The notes beneath the pieces are model-generated. The model was given only the letters and a program-made list of their open reading frames with translations. It made no database searches and had not been told where the DNA came from. From positions 1 to 64,000 of the IMG/VR virus record IMGVR_UViG_3300028048_000069: a stretch of 64,000 bases of DNA. One strand, given 5' to 3'. Shown in pieces: positions 3,733 through 52,969 of this stretch (its first letter is position 1; every line of letters begins with the position of its first letter). This DNA comes from a virus. Its lineage: Duplodnaviria > Caudoviricetes. A program made the translations under genes and the position numbers.

Positions 3733-4217
3733 TGTTATTTGTAAAATTGATAAAATCTGCTACTAAAAATACAACTAGAACCAAGAAACTTGTTAATAAA
3801 CCTAGTGAAAAACTGCCCAAAACCGCGCCAAAACGCGATTTAAGCAAAAATACTAGTAAAGGGGTACAACCTACCCAAAAACATCTTAAAACTCAAAATA
3901 AGCCAGTTTCTAGGAGATTTAAGATAAAACCTAATACAGGTTATCCTTTACAAGATGTAAGTTTGCCTGTTTTTCAAGATTTATTGGAACAAGGGTATAA
4001 TATGGTTACTTTTGTAGCACATCCTAATGCTTGTAATCATTGTAAAGGTATAAATGGAAAAACAAAGTCATTAGACCAACATTTAAGAAGTTTAAATTAT
4101 GAAGCACCTGTATTCGAAATGGCTCACGTTAATAGCCAAAGCGAATTAAAAGTGTGGGATAAAAATGGTGAATTACCAGATGTTTTTGTAAATTATGAAG
4201 GAGATATACACGAATGA
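3732..4217 (+). CDS. MuF/SPP1 gp7-like minor head protein with MLF..KS leader
   Basis: HPNACNHC...AHVNSQS resembles the MuF C-terminal CxxC...HPNCRC motif; leader MLFVKLIKS; basic N-terminal half. Confidence 0.5.
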   Translation: MLFVKLIKSATKNTTRTKKLVNKPSEKLPKTAPKRDLSKNTSKGVQPTQKHLKTQNKPVSRRFKIKPNTGYPLQDVSLPVFQDLLEQGYNMVTFVAHPNACNHCKGINGKTKSLDQHLRSLNYEAPVFEMAHVNSQSELKVWDKNGELPDVFVNYEGDIHE

Positions 4218-6964
4218 AATTTTTTAAAGTAAAAAAAGCAGATATTGGTGAAAAATATAGAGGTAATAAAAATTTTCCCTTAAATATTCCATTAGATGAT
4301 TTCAATAAAGTAAAAGAAAATGCAAAATTAGTTTTTGATCCAAGAACAAAAAAAGAAGAAGTATGGTCATATATAGGAAATAATGGAAATTTAGACCTTT
4401 TTGAATTATTATCTTATGAAAATGTAGATAATAAACCTTGGGTAAAACTTGTTGTAAATAATTTATCTAATTCATATTATAATAAAGACCTTTATTATGA
4501 TGTTGGTGCATCATATGATATATCAAATTTAGAACTTAAAAACAATATGAAAAAAGAATCAGCAATTCAACAACCTAATAAACCTAAACCAACAACCATG
4601 TTACCAGACAATATGGAATGGGCTTGGGATCCAGAGGCTGCCGATTGGGTAGCTGTATTAAAAGATAATACAAATACTACTCCACCATTATATGATCCTA
4701 ATAATCAAAATGTAGTAAATCAAACTACAAATTATATGAGTACAGTAAAATCTGCTTCCAATAAAAACATAGATAGTATTATTGAAGATTATAAAGAAAA
4801 AGTATTGGTAGATGTTAGTGCTGTTTCTACAAAAGAAGATGATTTTTATAAAGAAAAAGAAATAGAAGTAGAAGAAGAAATTAAAGAGGCACAAAAATAT
4901 GTATCTTCTATTTTAGATAATAAAAATGCCAAAAGTTATTTAGAAAGACAAGTGCAAAAAACAAAAGAAGTTTATGGTGAAAATTCTAATTACTATAACT
5001 ATGCCAAATTTGTATTAGATTTATATAACGAAATGTCAAGAAACTCTGATATAAGAAATATGAAATCTGCTAGTAAAAAAGTTAAATCAGAAAAAAGTAT
5101 GATGGACCTTGCACAAAACATTATCTATGATGTGGTTTTAATTCACAAAGCAAAATCTATGGATGAAAGACCAGAGTGGGATGGCACTTTTGCTATACTT
5201 ACTTTGAACCCAGAAAAGACAGATATTGTTGATATAAAATATATACCACAATCTTCGTTGCCTTCATATACACCAAATGATAATGAATATGGACTTGTAA
5301 GAACAAGAGATACTGGCTTTGATGATACAGATTATCAGTTACAGCCATTAGAAATGATAATTAACCAAAGAAAATCAGATAGTTTTGCTAAAGATGATAA
5401 AAATGCTGTTGAAAGTGGCTATAAAAAACAATCATCTTGCTTATCTAACTTTTTAGATGGTCCAAGATATAGCAAAGAAATTAAAATTGAAGCAGGTTTA
5501 ATTAAAAATGGTTTAGTTAAATATGCTGGATTTGATTTTAATCGCGGTACAAAATATGCTATTACTGATAAAGGTTTAGAAGTATTAAGAAAAGCCTCTG
5601 AAAAAGAACATAATGAAGCCTTAAATGAAAGAGAAAAATTGGCTTATATGTTCGGTTTTAATACTGATAAAGAAACCACTCTAGATACTACTGGTAAGAT
5701 TATTAAATCAGACAAAAAATTTCACATACATCTTCCTGGAAGTTTTTACACGCAAGAAATTTATGGTGAAACCATAGATGATGCTTTAGAAAACTATGGG
5801 TACAAAAAAGATGAAATTATGGAATGGTATGATGACGAAGGTAATGGCGAATATATAGGTAATCTTGTTGAATGTGATTTGTGCGGTGAAAAATACGAAG
5901 CAGATGAATTAGTTTCAACTGATATGGGAAATATATGTTTCAAATGCAAAAAAGGCATTGAATCCAAAGAAGGGCCATTTCAAAAAAGGTTTTCTATCAC
6001 AGAAGCAGACGGAACTCCATTAGGTAAAGTAACCGCAAGCAGTGAATTAGATGCTAAAGTTAAATTTGGTATTGAACATCCAGAATATGCAGATAGCCAA
6101 AGTATTAGTGCCAAAGTAATATGTGCATCAGAAACAGAGTATATGTCTGTTCAAAATATGAAAACATTTTTGAAACAGCAAGGTGCAAAAGAAATTTCGT
6201 TCGGTGCTTTTACACAAGATGTACCACATAGTGATAGTGATTTAGTTAAAGTTATAGAATCTCACGGTACAAAGAAAATACATTTGACATACGACCACTA
6301 TAAAGTATTTGTTTATACTAATGGTGCAAGAATGATAGAAGATTTGGCTAAATATAATGGAAATTGGAAAGATAGATACTTTATTTTTACCAAAGTTTCT
6401 AATAACAAAAACATTGATGCCAAATATGAAGAAACAACCGAGTCTCATGAACCTTATATTAATCCCTCAGAAACTCCTAACGATCACATTATTTTAGAAA
6501 ATCATGATGGTTGGGTAAATACTGCTAGTTTTGAAGATGATGTCAGAAAACAATTTCAACAACCTCATCAAAAATTACCTAATAGTGATAGAGATTTAGC
6601 TTTATTAGAAAAACAAATTCTTGAAATTACAGATGAAGATACAAGAGATACTGTAAGAAAAATATTTGATGAATTTCAATTTTCTGATAAAGAAGCTGCA
6701 GAACATAGACCTTATACTGAAGAAGAAAAAAGATTATTACCTCTATTTAGACTTCTTAATCAGCATATAGCTAAAAAAGAGATTCAAATAGTTGAAGATC
6801 CTCAAAAAGATGGTAATATTGTAGCTACAGGTCAAGCAGAAGTAATTAATGATCTTGAACACGAAGTAAAAGATCTAGGATTTCATTGTGAGCCTATCGC
6901 AGAAATTACCGATGAAGATTATATTGGATATGATATTTATTCTTTAAGAATCTTTACTAAATAA
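4214..6964 (+). CDS. Large modular protein with MKF..KA leader and internal K-[VI]-x-[SA] linkers (putative polyprotein)
   Basis: MKFFKVKKA start; internal SASKKVKSE, KIIKSD, KVTASS, KVICASE; one Zn ribbon (CDLC...CFKC). Confidence 0.6.
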   Translation: MKFFKVKKADIGEKYRGNKNFPLNIPLDDFNKVKENAKLVFDPRTKKEEVWSYIGNNGNLDLFELLSYENVDNKPWVKLVVNNLSNSYYNKDLYYDVGASYDISNLELKNNMKKESAIQQPNKPKPTTMLPDNMEWAWDPEAADWVAVLKDNTNTTPPLYDPNNQNVVNQTTNYMSTVKSASNKNIDSIIEDYKEKVLVDVSAVSTKEDDFYKEKEIEVEEEIKEAQKYVSSILDNKNAKSYLERQVQKTKEVYGENSNYYNYAKFVLDLYNEMSRNSDIRNMKSASKKVKSEKSMMDLAQNIIYDVVLIHKAKSMDERPEWDGTFAILTLNPEKTDIVDIKYIPQSSLPSYTPNDNEYGLVRTRDTGFDDTDYQLQPLEMIINQRKSDSFAKDDKNAVESGYKKQSSCLSNFLDGPRYSKEIKIEAGLIKNGLVKYAGFDFNRGTKYAITDKGLEVLRKASEKEHNEALNEREKLAYMFGFNTDKETTLDTTGKIIKSDKKFHIHLPGSFYTQEIYGETIDDALENYGYKKDEIMEWYDDEGNGEYIGNLVECDLCGEKYEADELVSTDMGNICFKCKKGIESKEGPFQKRFSITEADGTPLGKVTASSELDAKVKFGIEHPEYADSQSISAKVICASETEYMSVQNMKTFLKQQGAKEISFGAFTQDVPHSDSDLVKVIESHGTKKIHLTYDHYKVFVYTNGARMIEDLAKYNGNWKDRYFIFTKVSNNKNIDAKYEETTESHEPYINPSETPNDHIILENHDGWVNTASFEDDVRKQFQQPHQKLPNSDRDLALLEKQILEITDEDTRDTVRKIFDEFQFSDKEAAEHRPYTEEEKRLLPLFRLLNQHIAKKEIQIVEDPQKDGNIVATGQAEVINDLEHEVKDLGFHCEPIAEITDEDYIGYDIYSLRIFTK

Positions 6965-6988: not shown

Positions 6989-7414
6989 ATGCCAGCTTTT
7001 TCAAAGAAATCATTAGGAATGTTACAACAATGTCATCCAGATATTCAAAAGGTGATGACAGAAGCCATTAAGATTATAGATTTTTCTGTAACCGAAGGTG
7101 CTCGTACAAAAGAAAAACAAATTGAGTATTTTAAAACTGGAAAATCTAAAACAATGAATAGTAAACATTTACCTAAATATTGTAATGAAATTGGTAAAGA
7201 ATGCTCATTTGCAATAGATGTTGTTCCATATCCCGTAAATTATAATGATCGTGAAAGATTTTGTTTATTAGCTGGTATTGTTTTAGGTATGGCAAAGGTA
7301 TTAAAAGATCAAGGAAAAATTAAATCTACAATACGATGGGGCGGAGATTTTTCAATGAACAATATCACAAAGGATGAAAAATTTTCTGATATGCCACACT
7401 TTGAGATATTATGA
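6989..7414 (+). CDS. Endolysin, M15-family L-Ala-D-Glu peptidase (T5 Lys-like)
   Basis: EGARTKEKQ, SKTMNSKH, AIDVVP, RWGGDF and DMPHFE motifs. Confidence 0.9.
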   Translation: MPAFSKKSLGMLQQCHPDIQKVMTEAIKIIDFSVTEGARTKEKQIEYFKTGKSKTMNSKHLPKYCNEIGKECSFAIDVVPYPVNYNDRERFCLLAGIVLGMAKVLKDQGKIKSTIRWGGDFSMNNITKDEKFSDMPHFEIL

Positions 7415-8486: not shown

Positions 8487-11400
8487 ATGGATCCAGTTAC
8501 AAATAAATTATTACAAGGTACACCTTATGCAGGTATGGGTGGAACACAAGAAAGAAATGCCTTAATTGGCGTTATCAGAAATTTAATTTCAGAAGATAAA
8601 TATACAGTAGATTACATTTTAAATTATGCACAATCTGTAGGTTATCAAAGACAAATGGCTGAAGAAGTTTTCAAAGAACTTACAGGTTTAAGTCCAAAAC
8701 TTATTGTAAATAATAACGAATATTACAATATGCCTTCTTATGTACCTAATATGTGTATTGCTTGGGGTACATCTAAATCAAATAAAGAAAAAGCCTTTTA
8801 CATTGTGCCTTTTGAATATGGTTATGCAGTAATGGAAAAAGACGAAGTAAATGCGCCTATTCCTACAGTTATTTCTGCGACTATTCCAGAAGCATTTGAA
8901 GAACTTAAAAAAGTAGCAAAGGGTATCCAAACATTAGATAAAATTATTACCAAAAAATTGTTAGAAGCAGAAGATGTGCAAACAGATGCTCATACAGTAC
9001 ATCAAGTAAATCTTCCTTATGCTGCCTCTCCTTTACAAATTCTTAAAAAGAACTTTAAGGATAAAGTATTAAGTGTTTCAGAGTTCGAAAGACAAGCATC
9101 TAAATTGTTAGCATCAGAAGAAATTACTGTTGACGAGGCCGAAGATTTAATGGCTTGGAAACAAGATTTAATTGATGAAGATGAAACCTATGGTAATGAT
9201 GTTCTTGAATTGGATGAACAATGGAAACCATTAGATGCGGATGTAGATGAAGATTTAGAAAGTTTCGATTATACCTATAGCCTTTTAGTAAATGGTAATA
9301 TCGACCTTTACAAAGAAAGATTAAATAAAATGTCCAAAGCCGAACTTATGGATTATATTTCTTGGGCAGAAGAAATGGGTATCGGTCGTGAAGAACTTAA
9401 ATTACACTATATTACTGCATCCAAACAGGTCAAATCTAGCAATAATTTTACAAAACAGCCAGGTTATCCGCTAGTGTTTGTTAGTGAAAATGATGAAGAA
9501 GTATTATCTCACGAAGAATTTGTTGATATGTGGAATGAAGATAATCCAGATAACCCTATCGGCGAATGGGATGAACAAGATAATGCCTACTTTGATTGGT
9601 TAGACCAACATTACAATGTAATGGAAGATGAAATGGAAGAATATCTTCGTAAAGCAACTTTACCAAAAGGAATTACAATTAAGATAAAACCAGGTGCTAC
9701 GAAAGGCGGTCAATTATGGGTAGAAGGCGACACATCCGATAAAAGTGCAGTTGCTAAAGTTATGATTGATGCTGCCAATGCCTGTGGTTGGGAAGTTGAA
9801 AATGACCAAAAAACAGCATCTAAAAAAGTAAAATCTGAACTGTCTGCTGATGTAAAATCCGAAATGGAACAAGAAGCACAAAACATCATTAAAAAATTCA
9901 AACCATATGTAATTAAATGGGAAGCGGATGATAATGGTGGTTCTGTGTTAATCGGAGATAAAAATTCTGATTTCCAAGCATGGGTAGATGTATGGATAAG
10001 CGGTAATGATGTAGATTGTGATTGGAATCAATATATTACCCATGTAAATGACCCAAAAGAATATCGAGATTTACAAGTCCGTAACGATACAGAAACAGTA
10101 TTTGATTTAGCTACTAGTGAAGCTATTTATTGTTTAGAGCAAAATAATATTATAGCTCAAGATGAAACTGCTCGTTGGTTTATGGTTAGAAATAATAAGA
10201 AAAATGCTTCTAAAAAAGTAATTTCAGAAAGTGTATCTGTAAAAGACCTTGAAGCAAAAGCCAAACACTACGAGGACTTACTTAAAGAAGAAGGTTACAA
10301 AGATATGAAAGTAACTCCTTACTTTGCTTATGGCTCTTATGGTTTTTACTTTGATTGGACTAGAGATGATGGAAAATCTGGCCAAAAGTTCACTGGTTTA
10401 GGCACTAAAAAAGAAACTTTAAATAATCTAAAATTGGTTTATTATGAACTTGTCAATAGAATTGATTGGTTTATGAAAAGAAAATCTGCCAATTCTAATT
10501 TGAATGATTCAATTAAAGAATGGTACACAAAAACCTATAAAACAGATGAATGTGGCGCGGATATTAACCCAAATACTACTTTTATGGAAGTATTATCTGA
10601 TGCAGAAAATGCCTATGATTTAATTGGTGTGACCGATTCAGTAGTTCGTGAAAGAGTATTTGATGAACTATCTAAAAGAACAAATATTCCCTATGAAAAA
10701 ATCTTTAATATGTGGATGGGAAAACAAGCTTCTAAAAAAGTTAAATCTAATAATAAAGATATCGTTGTAATTGATACTGGTAATGGTTATTTACAAGTAT
10801 TTGAAAATGACGATACCTACGATTATGGCGGTCATCAAGTAGGCGAACAACTTTATGAATTTAGTATCAATGATGAAGATAGAAACAATGGAAAAGCGAC
10901 CCTTGATGTTGATGATTTATTAAATAGTAAGTTTTATGGAATAGTCTTTGAGGATTTTGACAAATTAGAGTGGTTTGTTCAACATATTAAAGATTCAAAT
11001 ACACAACAAGAAATTAAAAACTTACTAAATAAAGAAGCCAAAGGTGTTTATTCTTCTAAAAAAGTAACTGCTGAAAATATGACTTTAGATGATATTGAAG
11101 CAGAAGATAATAAAGATCAAGTTCAAGAAGAAATTGAAAAGATTGATGAAACACCTACTGAAGATATTTTCTCTGAAACAACTCCAGAACAATACTTTGA
11201 TAAAGCACTACAAGAAGATAAGGTTGATACTATCAATGATGTAGTAAGCAAATGTATTGATAAATTCAGCGAAAAATTTAAAGACTTTGATAAATACCAA
11301 GTTAAGATTTTATCTTACAATACCAAAGTACTCGAAGATGATAAACCAGTACAAGAAGAAATGGTAGAAGATAAAGAACTTAATGCTAATGCTATTTTAC

Positions 11401-11606
11401 AAGTAATTTTGCAAATTACTAATAATTCCGAAGAAGCAAACATTAAAAAGGTATTAGCAGTATTTTCAATTACTAATGGTGAATTACATTGGACAGGCAC
11501 TGTACGCGGTGAAAATGACCAAGTGGTTGCCTTTACAGAAGAAGGATTTGATGCTTTATTTGAAGTAAATGAACCTTCTGAAGATGAATTAGAGGATATT
11601 ATTTAG
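8487..11606 (+). CDS. Large acidic modular protein with five ASKKVKS-type linkers (putative polyprotein/inner head protein)
   Basis: Linkers at ~9417, 9816, 10206, 10728 and 11052. Confidence 0.6.
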   Translation: MDPVTNKLLQGTPYAGMGGTQERNALIGVIRNLISEDKYTVDYILNYAQSVGYQRQMAEEVFKELTGLSPKLIVNNNEYYNMPSYVPNMCIAWGTSKSNKEKAFYIVPFEYGYAVMEKDEVNAPIPTVISATIPEAFEELKKVAKGIQTLDKIITKKLLEAEDVQTDAHTVHQVNLPYAASPLQILKKNFKDKVLSVSEFERQASKLLASEEITVDEAEDLMAWKQDLIDEDETYGNDVLELDEQWKPLDADVDEDLESFDYTYSLLVNGNIDLYKERLNKMSKAELMDYISWAEEMGIGREELKLHYITASKQVKSSNNFTKQPGYPLVFVSENDEEVLSHEEFVDMWNEDNPDNPIGEWDEQDNAYFDWLDQHYNVMEDEMEEYLRKATLPKGITIKIKPGATKGGQLWVEGDTSDKSAVAKVMIDAANACGWEVENDQKTASKKVKSELSADVKSEMEQEAQNIIKKFKPYVIKWEADDNGGSVLIGDKNSDFQAWVDVWISGNDVDCDWNQYITHVNDPKEYRDLQVRNDTETVFDLATSEAIYCLEQNNIIAQDETARWFMVRNNKKNASKKVISESVSVKDLEAKAKHYEDLLKEEGYKDMKVTPYFAYGSYGFYFDWTRDDGKSGQKFTGLGTKKETLNNLKLVYYELVNRIDWFMKRKSANSNLNDSIKEWYTKTYKTDECGADINPNTTFMEVLSDAENAYDLIGVTDSVVRERVFDELSKRTNIPYEKIFNMWMGKQASKKVKSNNKDIVVIDTGNGYLQVFENDDTYDYGGHQVGEQLYEFSINDEDRNNGKATLDVDDLLNSKFYGIVFEDFDKLEWFVQHIKDSNTQQEIKNLLNKEAKGVYSSKKVTAENMTLDDIEAEDNKDQVQEEIEKIDETPTEDIFSETTPEQYFDKALQEDKVDTINDVVSKCIDKFSEKFKDFDKYQVKILSYNTKVLEDDKPVQEEMVEDKELNANAILQVILQITNNSEEANIKKVLAVFSITNGELHWTGTVRGENDQVVAFTEEGFDALFEVNEPSEDELEDII

Positions 11607-11621: not shown

Positions 11622-11882
11622 ATGAAATTTACAAAAGTGGTGAAATCAAAACAATCAACAGTTGATATAAAAGAAGAATTCGATAAAACTATATTAGAAG
11701 CAGATAAATTTTATAATTCTATAAATAACTTACAATCAATTATCGCTGATGTTATTTCTGAAGAAAAATATTCTGCACATTATAGCGATAATCTTATATC
11801 AGAAAAAATTAATGAGTTGAAAAATTATTTAAATTCAATAAATATAACATTAAAAGATATATCTAAAATTTATTATAAATAA
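11622..11882 (+). CDS. Small protein with MKF..KS leader
   Basis: MKFTKVVKS; AGGAG RBS. Confidence 0.65.
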   Translation: MKFTKVVKSKQSTVDIKEEFDKTILEADKFYNSINNLQSIIADVISEEKYSAHYSDNLISEKINELKNYLNSINITLKDISKIYYK

Positions 11883-12421: not shown

Positions 12422-13409
12422 ACCACTCTAGAAATTCTTCTAAATTATAAAAAATTTTATAATTAAGATTATTTCTTTTAAAAGTTGCTAATTTATTAGG
12501 GTCATCTATAGTCCAAATATAGATGGCCTTATTATATTGCTTTTTTAGTTCATTTTTAAAATCAATCTCTTTTGATTTTTTAATCCAATTATTTAATTGT
12601 TCTTGATGGTTCAGATTATTTTTATCATATGGTTCAAAACCATGTGTCCAATAAAAATTTAATTCGATAAAAAGATCTAATGATTTTATATAAAAATCAC
12701 ATTCAAAAGGATATCTTTCTTTATCATAGTAATGATGTATGATATCTTCAAAATTAAATTTATGAATTAAAAATTGATAAATCATATCTTCTGCATTAGA
12801 TGTTCCATAAGTTCCATTTTTCTTTCTTGTTTGATAACGCTTTCTATTAATATTCTCTATTTTAGAAGACATTTTTTCTTTATATTCCATAGTTTTTGAA
12901 TAGCTATCCACTCCTCTTCGCTTCATATTAGTTTCTTTCATCTTTGGTCTATTGTTATAAAATTCGTCGCCATATAAAATATTACAAGTATTTCTAGCTT
13001 TAGTTCTATTTGTGTAATGTGGATGATTATATCTTTTTAAATTAGTGGCTTCTCTTTTATTTGGATTTGTATAGTATTTATTATTATATCTTTTATAGCA
13101 TGTATTATATGCTTTTTCTCTGCTATACTTTGTTCCACAACTTCTACAACAGTGGTATTTATAAATAATGCCATCAAATGGATTTTTATTTCCACAATTA
13201 CAAAAAATATGTAAATCTTCCAAATTATCTTTATGTTTTAGCAGATAAATTAGTTCATTATTGCTTCTTATATTAAGATTATTATTAGAAATTATTTTGC
13301 TTAAAATAGGTTTATTTGGATTATATCTAGTGGGTCTATTACCACTCAATTTTAATTGTTTTATTAGTGGTTCTGTTTCTAAGAAATTTTTTATATCTTG
13401 TATAGTCAT
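12402..13409 (-). mobile_element. Free-standing homing-endonuclease-like gene (Zn-binding/basic repeats plus PD-(D/E)xK, Vsr/DUF559-like domain)
   Basis: CNCG...CCRSC; repeats KRYNNKYYTN/KRYNHPHYTN; C-terminal ECDFYI...FIELN.YWTHG; antisense insertion in the tail operon. Confidence 0.7.
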
Positions 13410-30040: not shown

Positions 30041-30677
30041 TATTGAAACTGTTTTTCTTAAAGTAAGAGAAGAATGGCAGAATAAAAAATATGAGTTAGA
30101 AATGTTATCTTCTAACATCGAAGATAACAAAAAAAGTTTGGCTAAATTGCAATCCGATAATAAAATAGCTGAAACTAGCAAAGAAGTTATTAACAACATT
30201 ATTTTATCTACTCGTAACGAGGCCATAGAATTTATTGAAAATGTAGTAAATGCTGCTCTACTAGATGTTTTTCAAAATCCTAATCTTAAACTTAAATTAC
30301 AATTAAACACAGAAGGTTCAAAAACTTCTATTTCTACTTTTATTGAAGAAAATGGGGAATTGTATGATATTGAATCCGCGCGCGGTGGCGGTTTAAGGGA
30401 TTTGGTCAGTACAGCCATCTTAATTTGTTGTAGAGCAATTTCAAAACCTAAAATTGAATTACCACTTTTACTAGATGAAAGTTTTAAATTTTTACATAGT
30501 ACAAAAGATAACCCTTTTAAGAGTAATGCTTTTAAGTTTTTAAGGGATGTAGCAAATAAACTTAACGAGCAAATTATTATCATCACAGGTGAAGATGATA
30601 ATGAAGCAACTGATAATGCTGATAATGTTATTTATGTTGCTAAAAAGGGTAACGAATCCTATTTAGAAAATGATTGA
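30006..30677 (+). CDS. Rad50/SbcC-like ATPase, C-terminal half
   Basis: Coiled coil, signature-like SARGGG and Walker B LLLDESF. Confidence 0.8.
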   Translation: MELQNLKNSINNIETVFLKVREEWQNKKYELEMLSSNIEDNKKSLAKLQSDNKIAETSKEVINNIILSTRNEAIEFIENVVNAALLDVFQNPNLKLKLQLNTEGSKTSISTFIEENGELYDIESARGGGLRDLVSTAILICCRAISKPKIELPLLLDESFKFLHSTKDNPFKSNAFKFLRDVANKLNEQIIIITGEDDNEATDNADNVIYVAKKGNESYLEND

Positions 30678-31419
30678 ATTGTATAATGAAGATTGTTTAA
30701 CTCGTTTGGATTCTTTGATAGATAGTGGGGTAAAAGTTGATGCTATTTTAACTTCCCCACCTTATAATTTTGGCATTGATTATGGCGATTACAAAGATGA
30801 TAAAGATTTTTCAGAATATTTTAATTGGTTAGATATTTGTTTTGATAAATTTATAAAAATTCTTAAATCGAGTGGAAGATTTATTATCAATATTCAGCCG
30901 ATGTTTTCATCATATCAACCGACCCATCATATAATTTCTAGTATGTTACTTAAAAAAGGATTATTGTGGAAGGGTGAAATTTTGTGGGAAAAGAATAATT
31001 ATAATTGCGCTTATACTGCTTGGGGAAGTTGGAAAAGTCCATCAAGTCCATATTTCAAATATACTTGGGAATTTATTGAAATATTCTGCAAAGATGATTA
31101 TAAAAAAGATGGAAATAAGGAAGATATAGACATTACTGCAAACGAATTTAAACAGTGGGTATATGCCAAATGGTCTATAGCACCAGAACATACAGATTTT
31201 CATCCAGCACCTTTTCCAGAAGAATTACCGAGAAGATTGCTTAAATTATTAACCTATAAGCACGATTTAATATTGGATCCCTTTATGGGTTCTGGCACAA
31301 CTGGAGTTGTTTGTAAAGAATTGGATAGAAATTTTATCGGAATAGAATTAGATAAAAAATATTTTGATGTGGCTGAAGAACGAATTAGTCGTGCACAAAA
31401 GATTAGAAAATTATTTTAG
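30670..31419 (+). CDS. N4-C/N6-A DNA methyltransferase (beta class)
   Basis: TSPPY, HPAPFP and DPFMGSGTTG. Confidence 0.9.
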   Translation: MIELYNEDCLTRLDSLIDSGVKVDAILTSPPYNFGIDYGDYKDDKDFSEYFNWLDICFDKFIKILKSSGRFIINIQPMFSSYQPTHHIISSMLLKKGLLWKGEILWEKNNYNCAYTAWGSWKSPSSPYFKYTWEFIEIFCKDDYKKDGNKEDIDITANEFKQWVYAKWSIAPEHTDFHPAPFPEELPRRLLKLLTYKHDLILDPFMGSGTTGVVCKELDRNFIGIELDKKYFDVAEERISRAQKIRKLF

Positions 31420-39874: not shown

Positions 39875-39937
39875 AGTAGTTTTAGATTAGTATAATATAT
39901 ATATGATAGATTATCATATATAGAGGTGGATTTTCTT

Positions 39938-40447
39938 ATGATAAGTCCTTCCAACCTTATCAATTTTATCTCGGAATCTTTTTTGGACTACCCTGATAAT
40001 AGTAGTTTATCTGTCATTTTTTATATGCCAGGCTGTGATAGAAACTGCATTGGGTGTCAAAATAAAGATTTACAAAGGTTTGAAGGATATTTAGAAGTTC
40101 CACTTTTAACAGATTTATTGTATTCTTATTGTGAAAAATCAAGAACTAATAAGTTATGCTTGCAAGGTGGCGACCCCTTATATAAAGAAAATCTTTATTT
40201 TACAAAGTATATTTTATTAAAACTTGGTAAGAAATTGGATATTTGCATATATACAGGCGCAACATTAACACAAGTAAAAAAACTTAATTTAGAAGGTTTT
40301 AAGTTTATTAAATGCGGTAAGTTTGATAGTTCTAAATATATAGGTTCAAAGAAAACAGATACCTATTTACAATTAGCAACCAGTAATCAACAATTATATG
40401 ATAAAGATTTGAATTTAGTTTCAAAAGACGGAATTTATTATTTTTAA
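39938..40447 (+). CDS. nrdG: Anaerobic ribonucleotide reductase activase (radical SAM)
   Basis: GCDRNCIGCQN, GGDPL, IYTG and SNQ; adjacent to nrdD; ATG 39938 follows GAGGTGG. Confidence 0.9.
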   Translation: MISPSNLINFISESFLDYPDNSSLSVIFYMPGCDRNCIGCQNKDLQRFEGYLEVPLLTDLLYSYCEKSRTNKLCLQGGDPLYKENLYFTKYILLKLGKKLDICIYTGATLTQVKKLNLEGFKFIKCGKFDSSKYIGSKKTDTYLQLATSNQQLYDKDLNLVSKDGIYYF

Positions 40448-40460
40448 TGGAGTAAGTATT

Positions 40461-42638
40461 ATGGAAAACATAGAAGTAAAAAAACCACTTAAAGTTAATT
40501 TTAAAGGTAAGTACATCCCAAACGAAGAAGATAAACAATATCAAGTAGAATTAGATAAACTTACTGATAAAACATTTGCAGATGCGGGTAATACTAGAAC
40601 CATTAAAAATATTAGGGAAACTTTAATTTGGGCATTAAAGAAAAAATATGGTAAAACAAATGGTGAATTAAAAGCAATTACTGATGGTTTATTAAAAATT
40701 CATGGTTTGCACGAAGATAATTTTGACCATATTAATTTATTTTCTAAATATATGACTAAAAACATCAATGATTTATCGATTGATGCTAATGCTAATAAAT
40801 CAGAAAAGTCAGTTAAAGGAGTGCTAAAAGATTTAGAGTTAAGTTCTGATAAACTTATCGGCTATGATATGCTTTATCGTACTATGAAGGAAATGTATGG
40901 TCAGGATGAGGCAAAAAGATTAGCAGGCGAAATGTATGATTTATCTTTAGGTCTGGCCGACAGTTCAAATATTTTAATTCCTTATTGTTGGGCAATTGAT
41001 GCTTCTAAACTAATTACAATGGGCAGAGATTTTGGAGTATTGCCTTCGAAACCATCTAAACGATTATCCTCTTATATTTCTGCTTTATGTGAAACAATCC
41101 ATCAGTTAGCGAGCCATTTAGCAGGTGCTGTTGCTATTGGTTCATTCTTTACAGATGCTGCTCATATTTTGATTTACAAAGAGCGTATACCCTTGAAAGA
41201 TATTAAAGAAAATAAGAAGATTAGAAAGCAGATTGAAAATGAGTTTCAACAATTTGTACATTCTGTAAACTTCCTTTCTAGAAATGGTAACGAAAGTCCT
41301 TTTACAAATATTTCTGTATTTGATAAAGAAAAATTAGATACATTCTTATCCGCAGATAACTATGGTTGGTTATTCCCAAATAGAATTGAAGTGTGTGTTG
41401 ATAATAATATGAAAGGTGAAGAAGTAAATGGGGAATGTACCTATAAAGTATCTAAAGAAGAGTTCAAAGAGTTTGTAAAGGATTATGTTTTTGAATTGCA
41501 GAAGATATTTGTAGATTTTTTTGATAAGGGCGACCCGATGAATGGTGGTATTAATTATCGTTTTCCTGTTGTAACTGTAAACTTTTCAAAACATAAAAAT
41601 GAAGAAACGGGTAGAGATGAGTTGGATCCACATAATGAACTTCTTGAATATATGATTAAGAAAGATATTTCTAAATATAATATCTTTACTTCATATGGTA
41701 CAAAGATTTGTTCTTGCTGTCGTATGATTAACAACACAGAACTTATGGATATGGCCGCTTCTGTAAATAGTTTTGGTGGAAGTAATGTATCTTTAGGTTC
41801 ACATAGAGTTGTTACTACAAATTTTGCTCGTATAGCCTATGAAGCAGAAGATTACGAAGAGTTTTTGGAAATTTTGAAAGATAGAGTTTACTCATCCGCT
41901 AAAATTTTAAAAGCGCATAGAGTATTGCTCACTAAATTAACTGAATTAGGTTTAGAACCATTTATTAAAAATGGTTGGATAAATATGAATAGAATGTTTA
42001 GTACATATGGTGTACTAGGCATTGTAGAAGCAGAACAAATTATTAAGCAAAAATTTGGAAAGAAAGATTTTGACTATATGGGCGATATATTAGTCAAGTT
42101 TAATACTTTATGTAAAGAGGCATCTGCTGAAAATGGTATTATTTTTAACATTGAACAAATTCCAGCCGAGAGTTTTGCAGTAAGATTGGCAGATGCGGAT
42201 AAATTATTATATGGAAATCCTTATGGATTAGACCCACTTTATGGAAATCAATTTGTACCTCTTTGGAAGAAAGCAGGTATTTATGAAAGATTGGAAATTG
42301 ATGGTAAATATAATCAATTATTAAGTGGTGGTGGTATTGTACACGCTCAAGCAAATAGTAAAGTTACTTCTACACAAGCCAAAAACATTATTTTACACGC
42401 AGTTGAGTGCGGATGCGAACACTTTGCTATAAATGTAGTTTATACACAGTGTACAGAATGCCATAATGTTGTTATAGGTAATGCTGATATTTGTCCAAAA
42501 TGTGGCGGAAAGCATTTTGACCATTATTCTAGGGTTATTGGTTTCTTTACAAAGGTAGAAGATTGGAATCCAACTAGAAGGGATTGGGAATTCCAGCGCA
42601 GACAATTTGTTGACCTTAAACAAGCCGATAAAAAATAG
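40461..42638 (+). CDS. nrdD: Anaerobic (class III) ribonucleoside-triphosphate reductase
   Basis: SPFTN, FPV.T, SCCR, EQIPAES, Zn site CTEC...CPKC and glycyl-radical loop YSRVIGF. Confidence 0.93.
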   Translation: MENIEVKKPLKVNFKGKYIPNEEDKQYQVELDKLTDKTFADAGNTRTIKNIRETLIWALKKKYGKTNGELKAITDGLLKIHGLHEDNFDHINLFSKYMTKNINDLSIDANANKSEKSVKGVLKDLELSSDKLIGYDMLYRTMKEMYGQDEAKRLAGEMYDLSLGLADSSNILIPYCWAIDASKLITMGRDFGVLPSKPSKRLSSYISALCETIHQLASHLAGAVAIGSFFTDAAHILIYKERIPLKDIKENKKIRKQIENEFQQFVHSVNFLSRNGNESPFTNISVFDKEKLDTFLSADNYGWLFPNRIEVCVDNNMKGEEVNGECTYKVSKEEFKEFVKDYVFELQKIFVDFFDKGDPMNGGINYRFPVVTVNFSKHKNEETGRDELDPHNELLEYMIKKDISKYNIFTSYGTKICSCCRMINNTELMDMAASVNSFGGSNVSLGSHRVVTTNFARIAYEAEDYEEFLEILKDRVYSSAKILKAHRVLLTKLTELGLEPFIKNGWINMNRMFSTYGVLGIVEAEQIIKQKFGKKDFDYMGDILVKFNTLCKEASAENGIIFNIEQIPAESFAVRLADADKLLYGNPYGLDPLYGNQFVPLWKKAGIYERLEIDGKYNQLLSGGGIVHAQANSKVTSTQAKNIILHAVECGCEHFAINVVYTQCTECHNVVIGNADICPKCGGKHFDHYSRVIGFFTKVEDWNPTRRDWEFQRRQFVDLKQADKK

Positions 42639-42689: not shown

Positions 42690-44453
42690 ATGGCTAAAAA
42701 AGTAAAAGCATCAGAAGTTAAGAAAATGAATGATTTTATGCCTATATTGGCAAAAACAGAGAGTTCTTTTAAAAAGAAGGCCGATTTATCAACAGATATG
42801 GCTATGGATAGCAGTAGAGTACCTCTTTATTGGCAAGATCCTCTGTATGATAGCCAACTTATTATGTTTCCCGAGTACAATCTACCCGAGGCAAATAAGA
42901 GATATAGACATTATTATAAGTTTAATCCTATTTTATCTTCTTGTGTAGATGCTCATGCTACTTTCCCTTTATCTGATTTCCAAGTTCTTTGTGAAAATGA
43001 AGAAATAAGAGAATATTATCAATTTACAGCCGATAGATTAAATTTGCTAAATATTGCTGAAAATTCATTGAGAGATATTGCTCTATTAGGGGAGTCGGTT
43101 TATTTAGGTAATTGGGATGCGGTAAATTTGGAATGGGAAGAATGGGTACAATATCCACCAGAATTTGTGGATATTTTAACAGTTCCTGGTTCAAATAAAC
43201 GAGTATTTACTATTAAACCAGACCCAGAAACAAAAAGAATTTTGCAAGAACAATCTGAAGCAAAAGATATTCTTTATAAAGCCTTGGAAAAACAAGATAA
43301 AGCATATTTACAAGCCGCAATTGAAGATAAGCCATATGTAATGCCAGATGCTAGAATAATGTATTTAGCAAATCAAGTAGATGGTTATTCTAAACGCGGT
43401 TATCCTTTAACAAAACGCGCTTTGCCAGATTTGATGTATGAACAAAAACTTCGTTCATTACAACACACCTTTGTAGAAAGACATTTATTCCCTATTAAAA
43501 TCTTTAAATTGGGTTCGGAATCAATGGGATGGGTTCCTAGCAATAAGCATTTTCAACAATTTAAGAAATTGTTAATTCAAGCAGCGGGCGACCCAGATAT
43601 GAGTTTAATTTATCATTTTGGCTTACAAGTTGATTATGTAGGTACGAAAGATAAAATTGAAAATTTAATACCACATTTCGAATTTACTACAAAGCGTATT
43701 ATGCAAGCATTCTTTATGAATGATGCTTTAATGAATGGAGATGCGAGTTATGCAGGTCAAACTGCTAATACTCGTTTGTTAATGCATCGTTTTATGACGA
43801 AGAGAACAATGCTTGAACAAGCATTTATTAATAAGATTTATTTACCAATGGCCAGACAGCAGCAACTAATTAAGTCTACCATTGATGAAAAAAGAACTAG
43901 AACAATGGTAAAATCTAAACGATTTGCCAACACTAGATATTATTTACCAAGTTTTATGTGGCAAAAACAAAACTTGCTAAATAGCCAAGCGGAAAGACAA
44001 TTTTTAATGCAGTTGTTTGAAAGAGATGCTATACCTTGGGGTATTATTAGAGATGTATTTGGTTTAGACCAAAAAGTAATCGATTATTATAGAAAAGAAG
44101 ACCAAGCAACTCTTTCTAATGAATTAACTAGAGAAATTATTGACCAAACAGTTAAGGATGACCCTTCGCTTTCATTGAGATATGCTTTGGGCGAAGACCC
44201 TATTGAGTTGTTAAAGAATAAACTTAAACAAGATACTATTGCTCAAGATACTGAAAATAAATTGAATGAAAATGGACCAGATAAATCAGATGATATAGGT
44301 GGCGGTTTCGGCGGTGGTTTTGATAGTTCCGCACCTATAGATTTAGGACCAGATAGTTCAATGGAAACAGGAGAAGAACCTAGTTTAGATGAAACTGGGC
44401 CAAGTACAGGTGATGAAGGTGCTGAACCCCCTGCTGAACCACCTATGGAGTAA
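42690..44453 (+). CDS. Portal protein
   Basis: YY..NP...CVD....P, G..Y, RGYP and FP...FKLG motifs of large-phage portals; acidic Gly-rich tail; near terL. Confidence 0.7.
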   Translation: MAKKVKASEVKKMNDFMPILAKTESSFKKKADLSTDMAMDSSRVPLYWQDPLYDSQLIMFPEYNLPEANKRYRHYYKFNPILSSCVDAHATFPLSDFQVLCENEEIREYYQFTADRLNLLNIAENSLRDIALLGESVYLGNWDAVNLEWEEWVQYPPEFVDILTVPGSNKRVFTIKPDPETKRILQEQSEAKDILYKALEKQDKAYLQAAIEDKPYVMPDARIMYLANQVDGYSKRGYPLTKRALPDLMYEQKLRSLQHTFVERHLFPIKIFKLGSESMGWVPSNKHFQQFKKLLIQAAGDPDMSLIYHFGLQVDYVGTKDKIENLIPHFEFTTKRIMQAFFMNDALMNGDASYAGQTANTRLLMHRFMTKRTMLEQAFINKIYLPMARQQQLIKSTIDEKRTRTMVKSKRFANTRYYLPSFMWQKQNLLNSQAERQFLMQLFERDAIPWGIIRDVFGLDQKVIDYYRKEDQATLSNELTREIIDQTVKDDPSLSLRYALGEDPIELLKNKLKQDTIAQDTENKLNENGPDKSDDIGGGFGGGFDSSAPIDLGPDSSMETGEEPSLDETGPSTGDEGAEPPAEPPME

Positions 44454-44458: not shown

Positions 44459-45082
44459 ATGAAATTTATAAGAGTATTAAAATCTAGCCTACCAAACGAA
44501 AATTCATTGGGCGAACTTATTGCCAATAACGAGCAAACTTTACAAAATTTTTGGAATTGGTTTAATGGTAGTAAGGTTGTTGATGAACAAGGTAGACCAT
44601 TAGTTGTTTATCATGGAACCATGTCAGATTTTAATGAATTTAATACTAATTATGTTTTTTCAACAAATGATATAGAAACAGCAAAAAGATATGGACATAC
44701 ATTATCATTATATTTAAATATAAAAAATCCTTATATTATAAATGCCGATGGAGATATATGGAGTGAAGTTCAAATTCCAAAAGAAATTAAAGAAAATTTT
44801 TCATATCATATAGAGAATATTCAATATGAGATATACAGTGATGCTCAATTTGAAGAAGATGAAGAATATTATAGCAATGTATTACCTATAAGAGAAATTG
44901 TAGATATAATAAGTACAAATAGAGATATTATACAATGCGATGGAATTATAGTTAACGATATTAAAGAAGATGAAGGTATTGTAGACGATTATATAGTGTT
45001 TAACTCAAATCAGATAAAATCCATTAAAAATAATAATGCTTATAAATCTGAAGATAACAGTATATATGGTAGCAAGTTATGA
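44459..45082 (+). CDS. ART-PolyVal-like ADP-ribosyltransferase domain protein with MKF..KS leader
   Basis: SKVVDEQGRPLVVYHGT...FS....AKRYG...YLNIKNP...DGII...YIVFNSNQIKS; leader MKFIRVLKS. Confidence 0.7.
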   Translation: MKFIRVLKSSLPNENSLGELIANNEQTLQNFWNWFNGSKVVDEQGRPLVVYHGTMSDFNEFNTNYVFSTNDIETAKRYGHTLSLYLNIKNPYIINADGDIWSEVQIPKEIKENFSYHIENIQYEIYSDAQFEEDEEYYSNVLPIREIVDIISTNRDIIQCDGIIVNDIKEDEGIVDDYIVFNSNQIKSIKNNNAYKSEDNSIYGSKL

Positions 45083-48385: not shown

Positions 48386-48416
48386 GTATAATATAATTGA
48401 TATTTGATAATATGAT

Positions 48417-48489
48417 TGCGGAGAAGACAGCCAGTGCGGTCGGGAGTCTCATAAACTCTTCTAGATTGGTGCAACTCCAATCTCCGCTA
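48417..48489 (+). tRNA. tRNA-Met(CAT), possibly initiator type
   Basis: Cloverleaf; anticodon loop CTCATAA; 1:72 mismatch; T-loop TGCAACT. Confidence 0.75.
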
Positions 48490-48496
48490 TAATTAT

Positions 48497-49205
48497 AAGC
48501 AGATATATGTCGGAGGCAGAAGTGTATATCACAATATAGATTAATTACCTATTATTGTAAAATGCTTGGGAAACGCAGGTCGGGAATAGTGAACTTCGCG
48601 AATACATTGGCCGATAATACCGACAGCCCACGATTTAGGTGTAATAACCTAATAAAAAGGACATAAGGAATGGTAGTGCTCTTATGTGTGCCAATGGAAT
48701 GGAGTGTGAATGCCTACTTACGCTTTAGGTAACTATAGTAAGTCCTAAAGAAGTGGTTCCAAGGGTACGGGAACTGAAAACTAGACCCATTAGTGTAGTT
48801 TCGGCTACCTTAAACAAACCGAATAACGCTTGGCTTTAAAATCTGACAATGGATGGAACGACTCCAATTAAAATAAAGTTCCTGCCAAGTTTGGATATAA
48901 GAGTATTGTAGCAATCCTTTAGATAATTTTCTTCTAAAGCAAAAAACTATAAGAAATTATATCTTAAATTACTAGAAAGGTAATACAGCAAGTGATGGTT
49001 TGTTGGCTTGTGAGGACAAGTTATTAACATAGTATCCTATTAGGTAGAGTTCATCACTACCGAGATAGGAGAGTTTAGATGACTAAACCTTAAACCGATG
49101 TCAGGAATGAAAAGTGTACTGACTTCCTCCTAGTAAGTAGTGATATTATATAAATGCTGTAAATATAGCGACTTGTGGCTAGTGATTACTATTTATATAA
49201 TGTTT
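48497..49205 (+). ncRNA. Large ornate structured ncRNA (GOLLD/ROOL-like class, family unconfirmed)
   Basis: ORF-free ~700 nt between tRNAs with more than 15 complementary stems, including long-range and pseudoknot pairings. Confidence 0.7.
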
Positions 49206-49346
49206 ATTGACAACCTACTCGGGCTTAACTATATACGCGAGGACGCGAGAATAGACCGCCAAAACAGAGTTATAAGAGATACTAGTTAATTCTTATACAA
49301 GTTTTACCACTTTACTTGAGGAGCCATAAAGTGGATGATATTTTAT

Positions 49347-49795: not shown

Positions 49796-49869
49796 GCGGG
49801 TATAGTTCAGTTGGTTAGAACGCTGCCCTGTCAAGGCAGAGGTCGTCGGTTCGAGTCCGATTGCCCGCG
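49796..49869 (+). tRNA. tRNA-Asp(GTC)
   Basis: CTGCC-CTGTCAA-GGCAG arm; GGTTCGAGTCC. Confidence 0.9.
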
Positions 49870-49879
49870 AATTTTATTT

Positions 49880-50086
49880 ATGAAATATTTAGCATTATTT
49901 ATTTGTATATTTTTGCCCTTAATATCATATTCTAAAGTGACACTTAAAGCAACTGGATATGTAGTTGTTAGAATAGTTAGTAATGAACAACTTATAAATT
50001 CTGATACATTGGTTGAGAATAAACAAATAGGTAATGAATTAGTTTATAGTTATATAAAAGATAATACTATAAATTATGTATTTTAG
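49880..50086 (+). CDS. Small secreted/membrane protein (start revised to ATG 49880)
   Basis: MKYLALFICIFLPLISYS is signal-peptide-like. Confidence 0.5.
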   Translation: MKYLALFICIFLPLISYSKVTLKATGYVVVRIVSNEQLINSDTLVENKQIGNELVYSYIKDNTINYVF

Positions 50087-50091
50087 ATTTC

Positions 50092-50165
50092 GCGCTGATA
50101 GCTCAATTGGTTAGAGCATCCGACTCATAATCGGCAGGTTCAAGGTTCAAGTCCTTGTCGGCGCA
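50092..50165 (+). tRNA. tRNA(CAT), elongator Met or Ile2
   Basis: CCGA-CTCATAA-TCGG arm resembles bacterial Ile2; GGTTCAAGTCC. Confidence 0.85.
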
Positions 50166-50193
50166 GAAAATTAGTATAATATTATTCATAAGA

Positions 50194-50405
50194 GACTTCA
50201 AGGACCTGTTTCCTTTGTGCGGTGGTTTGCTACTACCACTGAAGTCGTAAAGTAGCACTCCTTTTGATAATTTTTATTGAGTTAGGACACACCTCGGACT
50301 CAATAAAAGTGGAAATGGGTGATGTAGAGGCCAAGGCTGTTCTACACTTCCATCTATTTTGAGGGATACTGGTACTCCCAATACCACAAAAAACCAGTAT
50401 TTTAT
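50194..50405 (+). ncRNA. Structured RNA / leader upstream of arginine decarboxylase
   Basis: Three-way junction with pseudoknot plus three hairpins; promoter motif at 50171. Confidence 0.45.
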
Positions 50406-50423
50406 TTATTGGAGATAATAACA

Positions 50424-50975
50424 ATGTACGAAGCATATGTACCTAAAGAAATATTTCTTACAAAAGGTATAGGTAGGCATAAAGAGAAATTAGCAAGTTT
50501 TGAAGAGGCATTAAGGGATGCTAAAATAGCAAGTTATAATATTGTTCCAGTCTCAAGTATTTTTCCACCACATTGTAAAATTATCTCAAAAGAAAAAGGT
50601 GTAAAGTTATTAAAACCAGGTCAAATTTTACATTGTGTAATTAGTAGAAATACTTGCAATGAAGCACGCAGATTAATATCTGCATCAGTAGGTGTAGCAA
50701 TTCCAAAAGACCCTAATCAACATGGTTATTTATCGGAACATCATAGTTTTGGGGAAACAGAAAAACAAAGTGGAGATTATGCAGAAGATTTAGCAGCATT
50801 AATGTTATCTACTACTATTGGAATTGACTTTGATAATGATACTACTTGGGATCAAAAAGAACAGATTTGGAAAATGAGTGGTAAGATTGTAAAAACAACA
50901 AATATTACTCAATCAGCAATTTGCGCTGATGATGTATGGACAACAGTAGTGGCAGCGGCAGTATTTGCTAGTTAG
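50424..50975 (+). CDS. pdaD: Pyruvoyl-dependent arginine decarboxylase
   Basis: SFEEALRDA.I..YNIVPVSSIFPP (Ser-Ser autocleavage site), GYLSEHH and WTTVVAAAVF; ATG 50424 with GGAG RBS. Confidence 0.9.
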   Translation: MYEAYVPKEIFLTKGIGRHKEKLASFEEALRDAKIASYNIVPVSSIFPPHCKIISKEKGVKLLKPGQILHCVISRNTCNEARRLISASVGVAIPKDPNQHGYLSEHHSFGETEKQSGDYAEDLAALMLSTTIGIDFDNDTTWDQKEQIWKMSGKIVKTTNITQSAICADDVWTTVVAAAVFAS

Positions 50976-50990
50976 TCATTTAGATTTTAT
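50976..50990 (+). promoter_or_regulatory. Putative late promoter motif before the tRNA cluster
   Basis: TCATTTAGATTTTAT. Confidence 0.55.
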
Positions 50991-51008
50991 TGTTATTTGA
51001 AAATTTAT

Positions 51009-51092
51009 GGCCAGATGGCGGAATTGGTATACGCGACAGACTTAAAATCTGTTGGTTGCAAAATCTTGAGGGTTCGAGTCCCTCTCTGGCTA
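51009..51092 (+). tRNA. tRNA-Leu(TAA)
   Basis: ACAGA-CTTAAAA-TCTGT arm; long variable arm. Confidence 0.9.
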
Positions 51093-51100
51093 TTTAAAAT

Positions 51101-51172
51101 GCCTTCTTCGTCTATCAGTTAGGACATCAGATTTTCAATCTGAAGAGAGGAGTGCGACTCTCCTAGAAGGTA
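51101..51172 (+). tRNA. tRNA-Glu(TTC)
   Basis: TCAGA-TTTTCAA-TCTGA arm; T-loop TGCGACT. Confidence 0.85.
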
Positions 51173-51176
51173 ATTT

Positions 51177-51248
51177 GCCCTTATAGCTCAATGGATAGAG
51201 CACCCGCCTTCTAAGCGGATGATATAGGTTCGATTCCCATTAAGGGTA
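51177..51248 (+). tRNA. tRNA-Arg(TCT)
   Basis: CCGC-CTTCTAA-GCGG arm; GGTTCGATTCC. Confidence 0.85.
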
Positions 51249-51258
51249 ATAATTTAAT

Positions 51259-51343
51259 GCTCAGTATGTTCCAATGGTGGGACAGCGGACTGTAAATCCG
51301 CCGCACTCGTGCATGGTAGGTTCGATCCCTACACTGAGCACCA
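51259..51343 (+). tRNA. tRNA-Tyr(GTA)
   Basis: GCGGA-CTGTAAA-TCCGC arm; long variable arm; encoded CCA. Confidence 0.9.
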
Positions 51344-51454
51344 TTTTAATAACCACACGAACGATAGGGTAATGCCTAGTTGATATTTTGGTGTTTAAGT
51401 GAATTGCTTAACAGAGAAGGGCAACTCTGGGTATAAATGCCCAATATATTTTAT

Positions 51455-51531
51455 CTACGTGTAGGATAGATGGTTATTCCGCGACACTTGGGCTGTCGAG
51501 ATCGCAGGTTCGAATCCTGCCACGTAGACCA
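51455..51531 (+). tRNA. tRNA-Pro(TGG)
   Basis: CGACA-CTTGGGC-TGTCG arm; encoded CCA. Confidence 0.9.
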
Positions 51532-51535
51532 TTTT

Positions 51536-51624
51536 GGAAAGGTGGCAGAGTGATTTATTGCACCGCTCTTGAAAAGCGGCAACGGAGATAACTTCGTTCG
51601 TGGGTTTAAATCCCACCCTTTCCG
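51536..51624 (+). tRNA. tRNA-Ser(TGA)
   Basis: CCGCT-CTTGAAA-AGCGG arm; long variable arm; T-loop TTTAAAT. Confidence 0.85.
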
Positions 51625-51638
51625 TTTTATTTATATAG

Positions 51639-52493: not shown

Positions 52494-52951
52494 ATAAAAT
52501 TAAAAAATTAGGCGATATTTTAACAGTAGTTTTACCAATAAGTATAATTCCGATAATTTTATGGTTAAATAATTGGAAATCACTTATTGTTTTTGCAATT
52601 ATTTATGGGTTAGGTAATTTAATTGTACAAGTATTAAAGGGCATTTTTGACGAACCTAGACCTAGAGAAACAGTTGGCGACCATGTTATTTATGTACATG
52701 GATATAGTCATAATGATGGGGAGAGTTTATGTTCTGGCCACGCTATGAGTGCTTGTCTACCTGCTTATTTTAGTTTATTCTTTATTAAGCCATTTTGGGT
52801 GTTTATACCATTTTTATTATTGGCTTGGCTATGTGGTTGGACAAGGATAAAAGTAAAAGCACATTGGTTTTTAGATGTGTTTCTATCAAATTTAATAGCA
52901 TTTAACTGTTGTTTATTAGTGGCCTATATTTATTTTAAATTATTAGTATAA
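52484..52951 (+). CDS. PAP2-family membrane phosphatase
   Basis: K-x6-RP, SGH and R-x5-H-x3-D motifs; hydrophobic helices. Confidence 0.85.
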   Translation: MVMNKIKKLGDILTVVLPISIIPIILWLNNWKSLIVFAIIYGLGNLIVQVLKGIFDEPRPRETVGDHVIYVHGYSHNDGESLCSGHAMSACLPAYFSLFFIKPFWVFIPFLLLAWLCGWTRIKVKAHWFLDVFLSNLIAFNCCLLVAYIYFKLLV

Positions 52952-52969
52952 TATATATAAATATTTGTT

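Follow-up and report, generated by a model that had tools for sequence, protein, structure and literature searches.

We analysed the first 64 kb (positions 1 to 64,000, hereafter the window) of the 136,046-bp IMG/VR virus record IMGVR_UViG_3300028048_000069 (Duplodnaviria; Caudoviricetes), which has direct terminal repeats and 30% GC and which, carrying genes for a baseplate-J protein and a sheath, looks like the genome of a myovirus-like phage. Our subject is a single unbroken plus-strand open reading frame (ORF) at positions 8487–11606, encoding a protein of 1039 amino acids with a mass of 119 kDa and an isoelectric point (pI) of 4.5. In this protein, copies of a short joint separate modules that are dissimilar to each other, its relatives carry other modules between the same conserved ends, and the joint occupies the place taken by an N-terminal leader in stand-alone proteins. 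From these relations and from structure modelling we consider that ORF 8487–11606 probably encodes the precursor of a cargo polyprotein, which would be loaded into the capsid and cut by the prohead protease.

A recurrent joint divides the protein into dissimilar modules

The joint pattern [AS]-S-K-[KQ]-V-x-[SA] occurs five times, at residues 311, 444, 574, 748 and 856, that is, starting at nucleotides 9417, 9816, 10206, 10728 and 11052 with spacings of 133, 130, 174 and 108 codons, exactly as an initial annotation made from the sequence alone had placed them. Searching with [AST]SK[KQR][VILM]x[SA] gave five matches in the 1039-residue protein, compared with a mean of 0.003 and a maximum of 1 in 20,000 residue shuffles. 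In the whole 136-kb genome, with its approximately 180 ORFs, the same pattern matched only eight times: five times here, once in ORF 4214–6964 and twice in ORF 122986–123843, the latter two ORFs encoding proteins with the MKF leader described below. The fuller consensus of the joint is K-K-x-[AS]-S-K-K-V-[KT]-[SA], and the joints are basic (+3 to +4) within an acidic protein. The segments between joints were mutually dissimilar, and a BLASTP comparison with the phage's own proteome found no internal repeat. The annotation had described these segments as unrelated and acidic; the first holds throughout, and the second for most of them (pI 4.0–5.1) with the exception of module d1, which has a pI of 8.7. 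The parts of the protein are listed here, with the confidence of the structure model given as pLDDT (predicted local distance difference test):

8487–9239, + strand: N core, residues 1–251; kept in all 90 relatives; its homologue in the base family (see below) is the N half
9240–9416, + strand: module a, residues 252–310; a small helical unit, pLDDT 90+, relocated or duplicated in relatives
9417–9437, + strand: joint 1, ASKQVKS, residues 311–317
9438–9815, + strand: module b, residues 318–443; acidic, common to P0005 and, distantly, P0095
9816–9836, + strand: joint 2, ASKKVKS, residues 444–450
9837–10205, + strand: module c, residues 451–573; also in P0003, P0008, P0064 and the leader-bearing 388-residue proteins P0096 and P0097
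10206–10226, + strand: joint 3, ASKKVIS, residues 574–580
10227–10490, + strand: module d1, residues 581–668; pLDDT 86–95, homologous to the leader proteins P0100, P0098 and P0099
10476–10511, + strand: decayed joint, residues 664–675; the aligned joint of P0098 is intact and K-rich and ends in IKA|EEE
10491–10727, + strand: module d2, residues 669–747; pLDDT 79–93, found without d1 in relatives
10728–10748, + strand: joint 4, ASKKVKS, residues 748–754
10749–11051, + strand: module e, residues 755–855; about 80% identical to a module in P0092 and P0093
11052–11072, + strand: joint 5, SSKKVTA, residues 856–862
11073–11603, + strand: C module, residues 863–1039; pI 4.05, with the C half of the base family as its homologue

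The N core closes at a conserved W-x-x-[LV]-x-A site, which reads PLDA|DV here (residue 251). Decay of the joint at 10476–10511 merges d1 and d2 into one predicted 20-kDa product, and thus cargo units appear able to merge as well as swap. At the DNA level, the Lys-Lys pair is written AAAAAA after TCT or AGT in five of six joints (the five here and the one at 5069–5089), and a −1 slip at the TCT-preceded runs would lead immediately into TAA. Frameshifting on the A6 run is unsupported, the run probably being no more than the result of Lys-Lys codon usage in a genome of 30% GC.

Relatives exchange modules at the joints

A search of 5.8 billion proteins yielded 94 relatives of 576–1267 residues, which we split at the motif before clustering the pieces. 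The N part and a 184-residue C module were shared by 91 proteins; between these ends lie 0–5 segments drawn from about 60 families, resulting in 59 architectures, and one module family has up to 17 different neighbours. As the initial annotation had predicted of variable modules between conserved ends, orthologs are not colinear and their breakpoints fall at the joints. Over 194 instances the joint sequence is near-invariant, with variation only downstream of the small residue: the C module is preceded by SKK[VI]TA and then E in 83 of 84 relatives, and among the 110 internal joints the next residue is E in only 36. Since conservation lies upstream of the small residue while the next residue is free, a cut would most likely fall after S or A.

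Module boundaries were also determined independently of the motif, by mapping the ends of BLAST segments on the 8487–11606 protein. Homology breakpoints clustered at residues 254, 311, 441–444, 570–577, 665–670, 746–756 and 852–860, indicating that all five joints are boundaries and that two more exist, at about residue 251 and about 664–675. The initial annotation had drawn the five and missed the other two. Sequence identity was discordant along the protein, the N core being 68% identical to that of P0009 where d1 was 91% identical, and 79% identical to that of P0005 where d2 was 95% identical, from which it follows that modules move between backbones. Module e recurs, moreover, in P0092 and P0093, two orthologs of another mosaic gene that this phage carries:

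4214–6964, + strand: second mosaic protein, 916 residues, with an MKF leader and one identical joint at nucleotides 5069–5089

The swapping of modules that had been proposed is thus borne out. As for its proposed route, only about 11 identical bases of joint DNA are common to the linkers, which does not distinguish recombination at linker DNA from selection for in-frame cassettes. The middle modules of the 91 relatives had no match to any other ORF of this genome. Near-identical relatives include P0003 and P0002. In the relative P0052, one cargo module is the CtsR C-terminal dimerisation domain (CtsR_C; Pfam E 6e-11), which may be a decoy for the Bacillota stress regulator CtsR and hints at a Bacillota host.

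The joint replaces an N-terminal leader before homologous domains

Twenty-two ORFs of the genome, otherwise unrelated, start with M-K-[FL]-x-[KR]-x-[ILV]-K-[SA]. Nine of them lie in the window, with starts at 184, 462, 866, 1360, 3732, 4214, 7411, 11622 and 44459. Besides the second mosaic protein, these include:

11622–11882, + strand: leader-bearing ORF
44459–45082, + strand: MKF-leader protein with an ART-PolyVal domain, the sole leader protein here with a named effector-type domain

We ruled out the leader as a secretion or lipoprotein signal, as its nine residues include no Cys and form no hydrophobic core. A search among shorter proteins retrieved P0096–P0100, in which modules of the 8487–11606 protein stand behind leaders. 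P0100 (95 residues) consists of d1 alone after an MKF leader, P0098 and P0099 have an MKW leader followed by d1 and a second module, and in P0096 and P0097 (388 residues) joints and module c come after an MKY leader. In ungapped BLAST alignments of P0100, P0098 and P0099, the last five residues of the leader (KLVKS, RLVKA) align on the KKVIS of joint 3, immediately followed by the first residue of the domain. The match that the initial annotation had seen between the linker core and the leader end therefore extends to position, since the MKF, MKW or MKY leader sits exactly where the joint is, in stand-alone and in two-module relatives.

Some short leaders, such as MKFKVKS, are almost the joint sequence itself. 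When 41,710 windows were scored with a five-residue matrix built from 21 leaders, the ranks were 20th–23rd for the KKVKS joints and about 360th for those reading KKVIS or KKVTA. The likeness between leader end and joint thus appears real but short, and the positional equivalence in homologous domains is the stronger evidence. Altogether, these data, the ungapped alignment above all, suggest that leader and joint are read by the same machinery. The ART-PolyVal domain behind a leader and the CtsR_C module in P0052 hint at an effector role for the cargo.

The conserved ends resemble the halves of one older protein

When 1.84 billion representatives were searched with a profile, dozens of proteins of 376–532 residues emerged in which the N core is joined directly to the C module. 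Homology of the N half (residues 5–161) had an hhalign probability of 99.5% with an E value of 9e-23 over 151 columns (alignment A3 against P0001), and that of the C half (the last 184 residues) a probability of 99.1% with an E value of 2e-18 over 156 columns (A3 against window positions 11052–11603). In this base family, which belongs to phages whose portal resembles that of phage G, the halves are adjacent, with only a short acidic stretch between them, whereas about 600 residues of cargo lie between them in the 8487–11606 protein. Because remote relatives join the N core directly to the C module, the two ends appear to correspond to the halves of a single older head-region protein that is unnamed and about 430 residues long, and this clade appears to be an expanded variant of the base family. 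The conserved N- and C-terminal anchor regions of the initial annotation are therefore retained as conserved ends but not as two separate anchors.

Base forms carry an extra 10–45 N-terminal residues that end in K-[KQ]-[AE]-[AGS] and look propeptide-like; a short helical unit and then [RK]-x-A-[DE] lie between their halves. In the simplest history, cargo would have been inserted at a probable pre-existing processing site within the old head protein. The 147-kb relative L007 (51% GC) has its base-form gene 5 kb away from the genes for the portal (43% identical to ours) and the protease. The base family has no name: it had no match in Pfam, PHROGs, NCBIfam, the PDB or cultured phages, and no usable match in the ESM Atlas. 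In distant relatives a 2320-residue ORF lies just upstream of the base-form gene. Small neighbouring ORFs in the cargo-free lineages (L007:11801–12124 and 12691–13044, L008:13871–14185) share the N-terminal sequence M-[ST]-F-I-D-F-T-G-[RK]-A-I-P, which may be that lineage's own leader.

Structure predictions and family searches

AlphaFold modelling of the whole protein with 50 aligned relatives gave a mean pLDDT of 63.5 and a predicted template modelling (pTM) score of 0.27. Confident islands covered residues 21–130, 181–235, 261–305, 581–665, 671–745 and 915–1030, and pLDDT was below 50 at 237–255, 310–340, 436–498, 553–581, 747–755 and 852–914, where every joint falls. In keeping with the modular reading of the initial annotation, the predicted architecture is that of beads on a string rather than a single integrated fold. 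Module c was modelled poorly, the alignment being noisy there, and residues 1–310 modelled alone also gave a poor result (pLDDT 59.6).

Using VIA-align, d1 matched HPF/RaiA hibernation factors in about ten HPF-family rows (Z 8.4, root-mean-square deviation 3.5 Å, 83 of 100 residues), a weak similarity given that a best Z of 7–8 is typical without a clear match; likewise weak, at Z values that are common without a true match, were the similarities of d1 to T7 Gp1.2 (Z 7.4) and of the C-module fold (residues 912–1031) to NTF2/cystatin-like folds (Z 6–7.4). The phage P1 Dar anchor structure 9vz0_I appeared as a single row (Z 5.7, 90 residues aligned) among many NTF2-like folds. When the whole model was searched against the PDB and BFVD with Foldseek, only rows with TM-scores of 0.05–0.1 were returned. 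Phage G gp7, which was listed by Foldseek, and gp11 were rejected, as hhalign showed neither to be related. No usable Pfam, PHROGs or NCBIfam domain was found in the whole protein, each module, the base family or 52 homologs, with the exception of CtsR_C in P0052, and a search by sequence for solved structures gave none for the base-family profile or for the protease.

Joint-like sites in head proteins and a proposed processing pathway

The protease, scaffold and capsid genes are found at the far end of the record and the portal gene in the window; its product is nearest to the portal of Bacillus phage G, at 28% identity:

42690–44453, + strand: portal protein, with a joint-like N-terminus MAKKVKA|S
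genome 125782–127446: head-maturation protease, matching phrog_18299 (E 1e-15)
genome 127519–129102: scaffold
genome 129581–130519: HK97-type capsid protein

A joint-like site, D-I-K-A|S, follows directly after the protease domain, such sites occur four or five times in the scaffold, its N-terminus included, and the portal has K-V-K-A|S at its N-terminus. On the pathway that we propose, the precursor would enter the prohead via its conserved halves, and the head-maturation protease would cut each joint of the form [VIL]-x-[SA] on the C-terminal side of its small residue, and probably cut at PLDA|DV too. The six to eight fragments of 7–29 kDa set free in this way would remain inside the capsid and exit together with the DNA. 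By the same protease, the 22 stand-alone proteins would be relieved of their MKF..K[SA] leader, so that the leader would mean 'address plus cut' and the joint 'cut'.

Several observations weigh against this pathway. The N-terminal site of the capsid protein, K-K-E-A-S, fits the [VIL]-x-[SA] rule poorly, and five-residue matches to the leader end also arise by chance in non-virion proteins. The protein itself starts with MDPVTNK and has no MKF leader by which it might enter the head. The protease is identified solely by its PHROG match, and family searches recognised a function in none of the modules. Neither the protein nor two base-form relatives had a match in cultured phages (tblastn against 50,697 records), and the relatives are all metagenomic. 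Finally, the gene, the last of an island of small genes, lies directly upstream of two tail-chaperone paralogs and a tape-measure-like gene, both in this genome and at loci L005 and L006, so that a location in the tail is possible.

This last arrangement would suit a tail or tail-lumen component that is loaded with the tape measure protein and whose modules ride in the tail. We hold such a role to be very improbable, since the gene directly follows the terminase gene at locus L004, in L007, a remote relative, the base form has the portal and protease genes beside it, a length that ranges from 576 to 1094 residues is unlike that of a length-determining tail protein, and the shared motif ties the protein to head proteins. 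A different objection is that the protein may never be cut, in which case it would be a multidomain, 'polyvalent' virion protein, with the motif as a flexible linker or a DNA- or scaffold-binding tag and the leader as a binding tag rather than a cleavage site. Polyvalent proteins with many shuffled domains are known (PMC5512222), and the joints are basic and sit in low-confidence stretches as any linker would. A passive linker, however, needs no near-invariant seven-residue sequence, and the joint is exchangeable with an N-terminal leader before the same domain and recurs after the protease domain and in the scaffold, which makes an uncut protein unlikely.

Alternatively, the chain could be a polyprotein that is cut by another protease or at another time, either by a host protease after injection or by the product of 6989–7414, a gene of the peptidase/endolysin type inside the cargo island. 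Polyvalent proteins are indeed thought to be processed by their own peptidases (PMC5512222), but the joint-like sites are found in classical prohead-protease substrates, namely at the protease's own C-terminal boundary, in the scaffold and at the N-termini of portal and capsid proteins, and 6989–7414 matches cell-wall hydrolase families rather than processing proteases; we therefore consider another protease to be decidedly improbable. Loading into the capsid followed by cleavage by the prohead protease is the reading that we prefer.

Other features of the genome

The island of small genes extends between the tube/sheath genes and the tail-chaperone genes and also spans the ends of the record. 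Inside it, between two leader genes, 6989–7414 encodes a peptidoglycan-hydrolase-like protein of 141 residues (phrog_465 endolysin, E 7e-38) that lacks a leader and may be a lysin associated with the virion. Nine tRNA genes (Asp, Met, Leu, Glu, Arg, Tyr, Pro, Ser and Thr) lie at 49796–53042, and just upstream of them about 0.9 kb, from about 48400 to 49300, is free of ORFs. DNA methyltransferase-like ORFs with SPPY/DPPY-type N-terminal motifs are scattered over the window (30670–31419, 56897–57703, 61067–62773 and 62798–63589), and an NrdD/NrdG pair is found at 39926–42638, among portal-region genes. In the relative at L004:735–3808, the large terminase is interrupted and split over two ORFs, of which the first 81 and last 518 residues match ours at 81–90% identity; the approximately 245 extra residues, with a Cys-rich start, look like an intein or homing-endonuclease insertion.

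Comparison with known systems

The closest precedent for the leader genes is phage T4, in which IPI, IPII, IPIII and Alt, unrelated and fast-changing proteins, share a short N-terminal capsid targeting sequence that gp21 removes after loading, and are ejected with the DNA (PMC9026906, PMC3012670). The 22 MKF-leader genes look like another case of this arrangement. The T4 internal proteins, however, are single proteins and here there is a chain; they carry the leader, whereas the 8487–11606 protein has none and its frame is a split conserved protein. T4-type proteases cut after Glu in [LI]-x-E, whereas joints and leaders here end in S or A with a variable next residue, and the portal here is closest to that of phage G, not T4. 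Several protease sites in one head polypeptide are found in the phiKZ-like phages, in SPN3US gp53 and gp54 and in 201phi2-1 (PMC10052503, PMC9026906). There, long propeptides are broken up by the many cuts and a single mature product remains, whereas the pieces here are predicted to be folded, exchangeable domains; moreover, the phiKZ/SPN3US sites, [SAG]-x-E, end in Glu and the joints do not fit them. The joints recall the sites of herpesvirus assemblin, which cuts after a small residue in [VL]-x-A|[ST] (YLQA-T, VQA-S) and releases itself (PMC4498786), to be compared with DIKA|S after the protease domain here, although this is an analogy of site shape only.

Polyvalent proteins, which are encoded by phages and by conjugative elements (Iyer et al. 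2017, PMC5512222), resemble the 8487–11606 protein in combining unrelated domains in one polypeptide, in shuffling, in their late or virion context and in their proposed proteolytic release. They carry their own peptidase and recognisable enzyme domains, whereas Pfam, PHROG and NCBIfam searches found none here (no MuF, ART-PolyVal or Zincin-like domain); ART-PolyVal is encoded in this phage by the separate leader-bearing gene 44459–45082, and the units of the chain are bounded by a fixed short motif that is apparently read by a protease in trans. DarA and Hdf of phage P1, conserved head-internal proteins on which packaging of other Dar cargo depends (PMC12810830), offer a possible model of how the N core and C module function, but P1 cargo is encoded by separate genes and not by insertions, and we found no sequence relation to the proteins here. 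Our literature search found no paper describing joint-punctuated cargo chains.

Implications

Tentatively, we propose that leader and joint might form a two-part peptide code, and that the head protein might be a docking frame that takes any small gene, in frame, as cargo; a single cargo pool would then exist in three forms, stand-alone genes, short chains and the large frame, each convertible into the others. On this reading virion cargo, which likely comprises anti-defence and takeover proteins, might be recognised in the genomes of uncultured phages. Should the joints be cut in the prohead, a single gene would give rise to six to eight small proteins in fixed 1:1 amounts, and their set could be changed by cassette exchange. 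If true, this would provide a sequence rule for finding injected proteins in uncultured phages from the motif alone, and injected proteins are a rich source of anti-defence and host-takeover factors, mostly of unknown fold. Leader and joint could also be used, as the T4 targeting sequence already is, to bring foreign proteins into phage heads, and the principle may be widespread.

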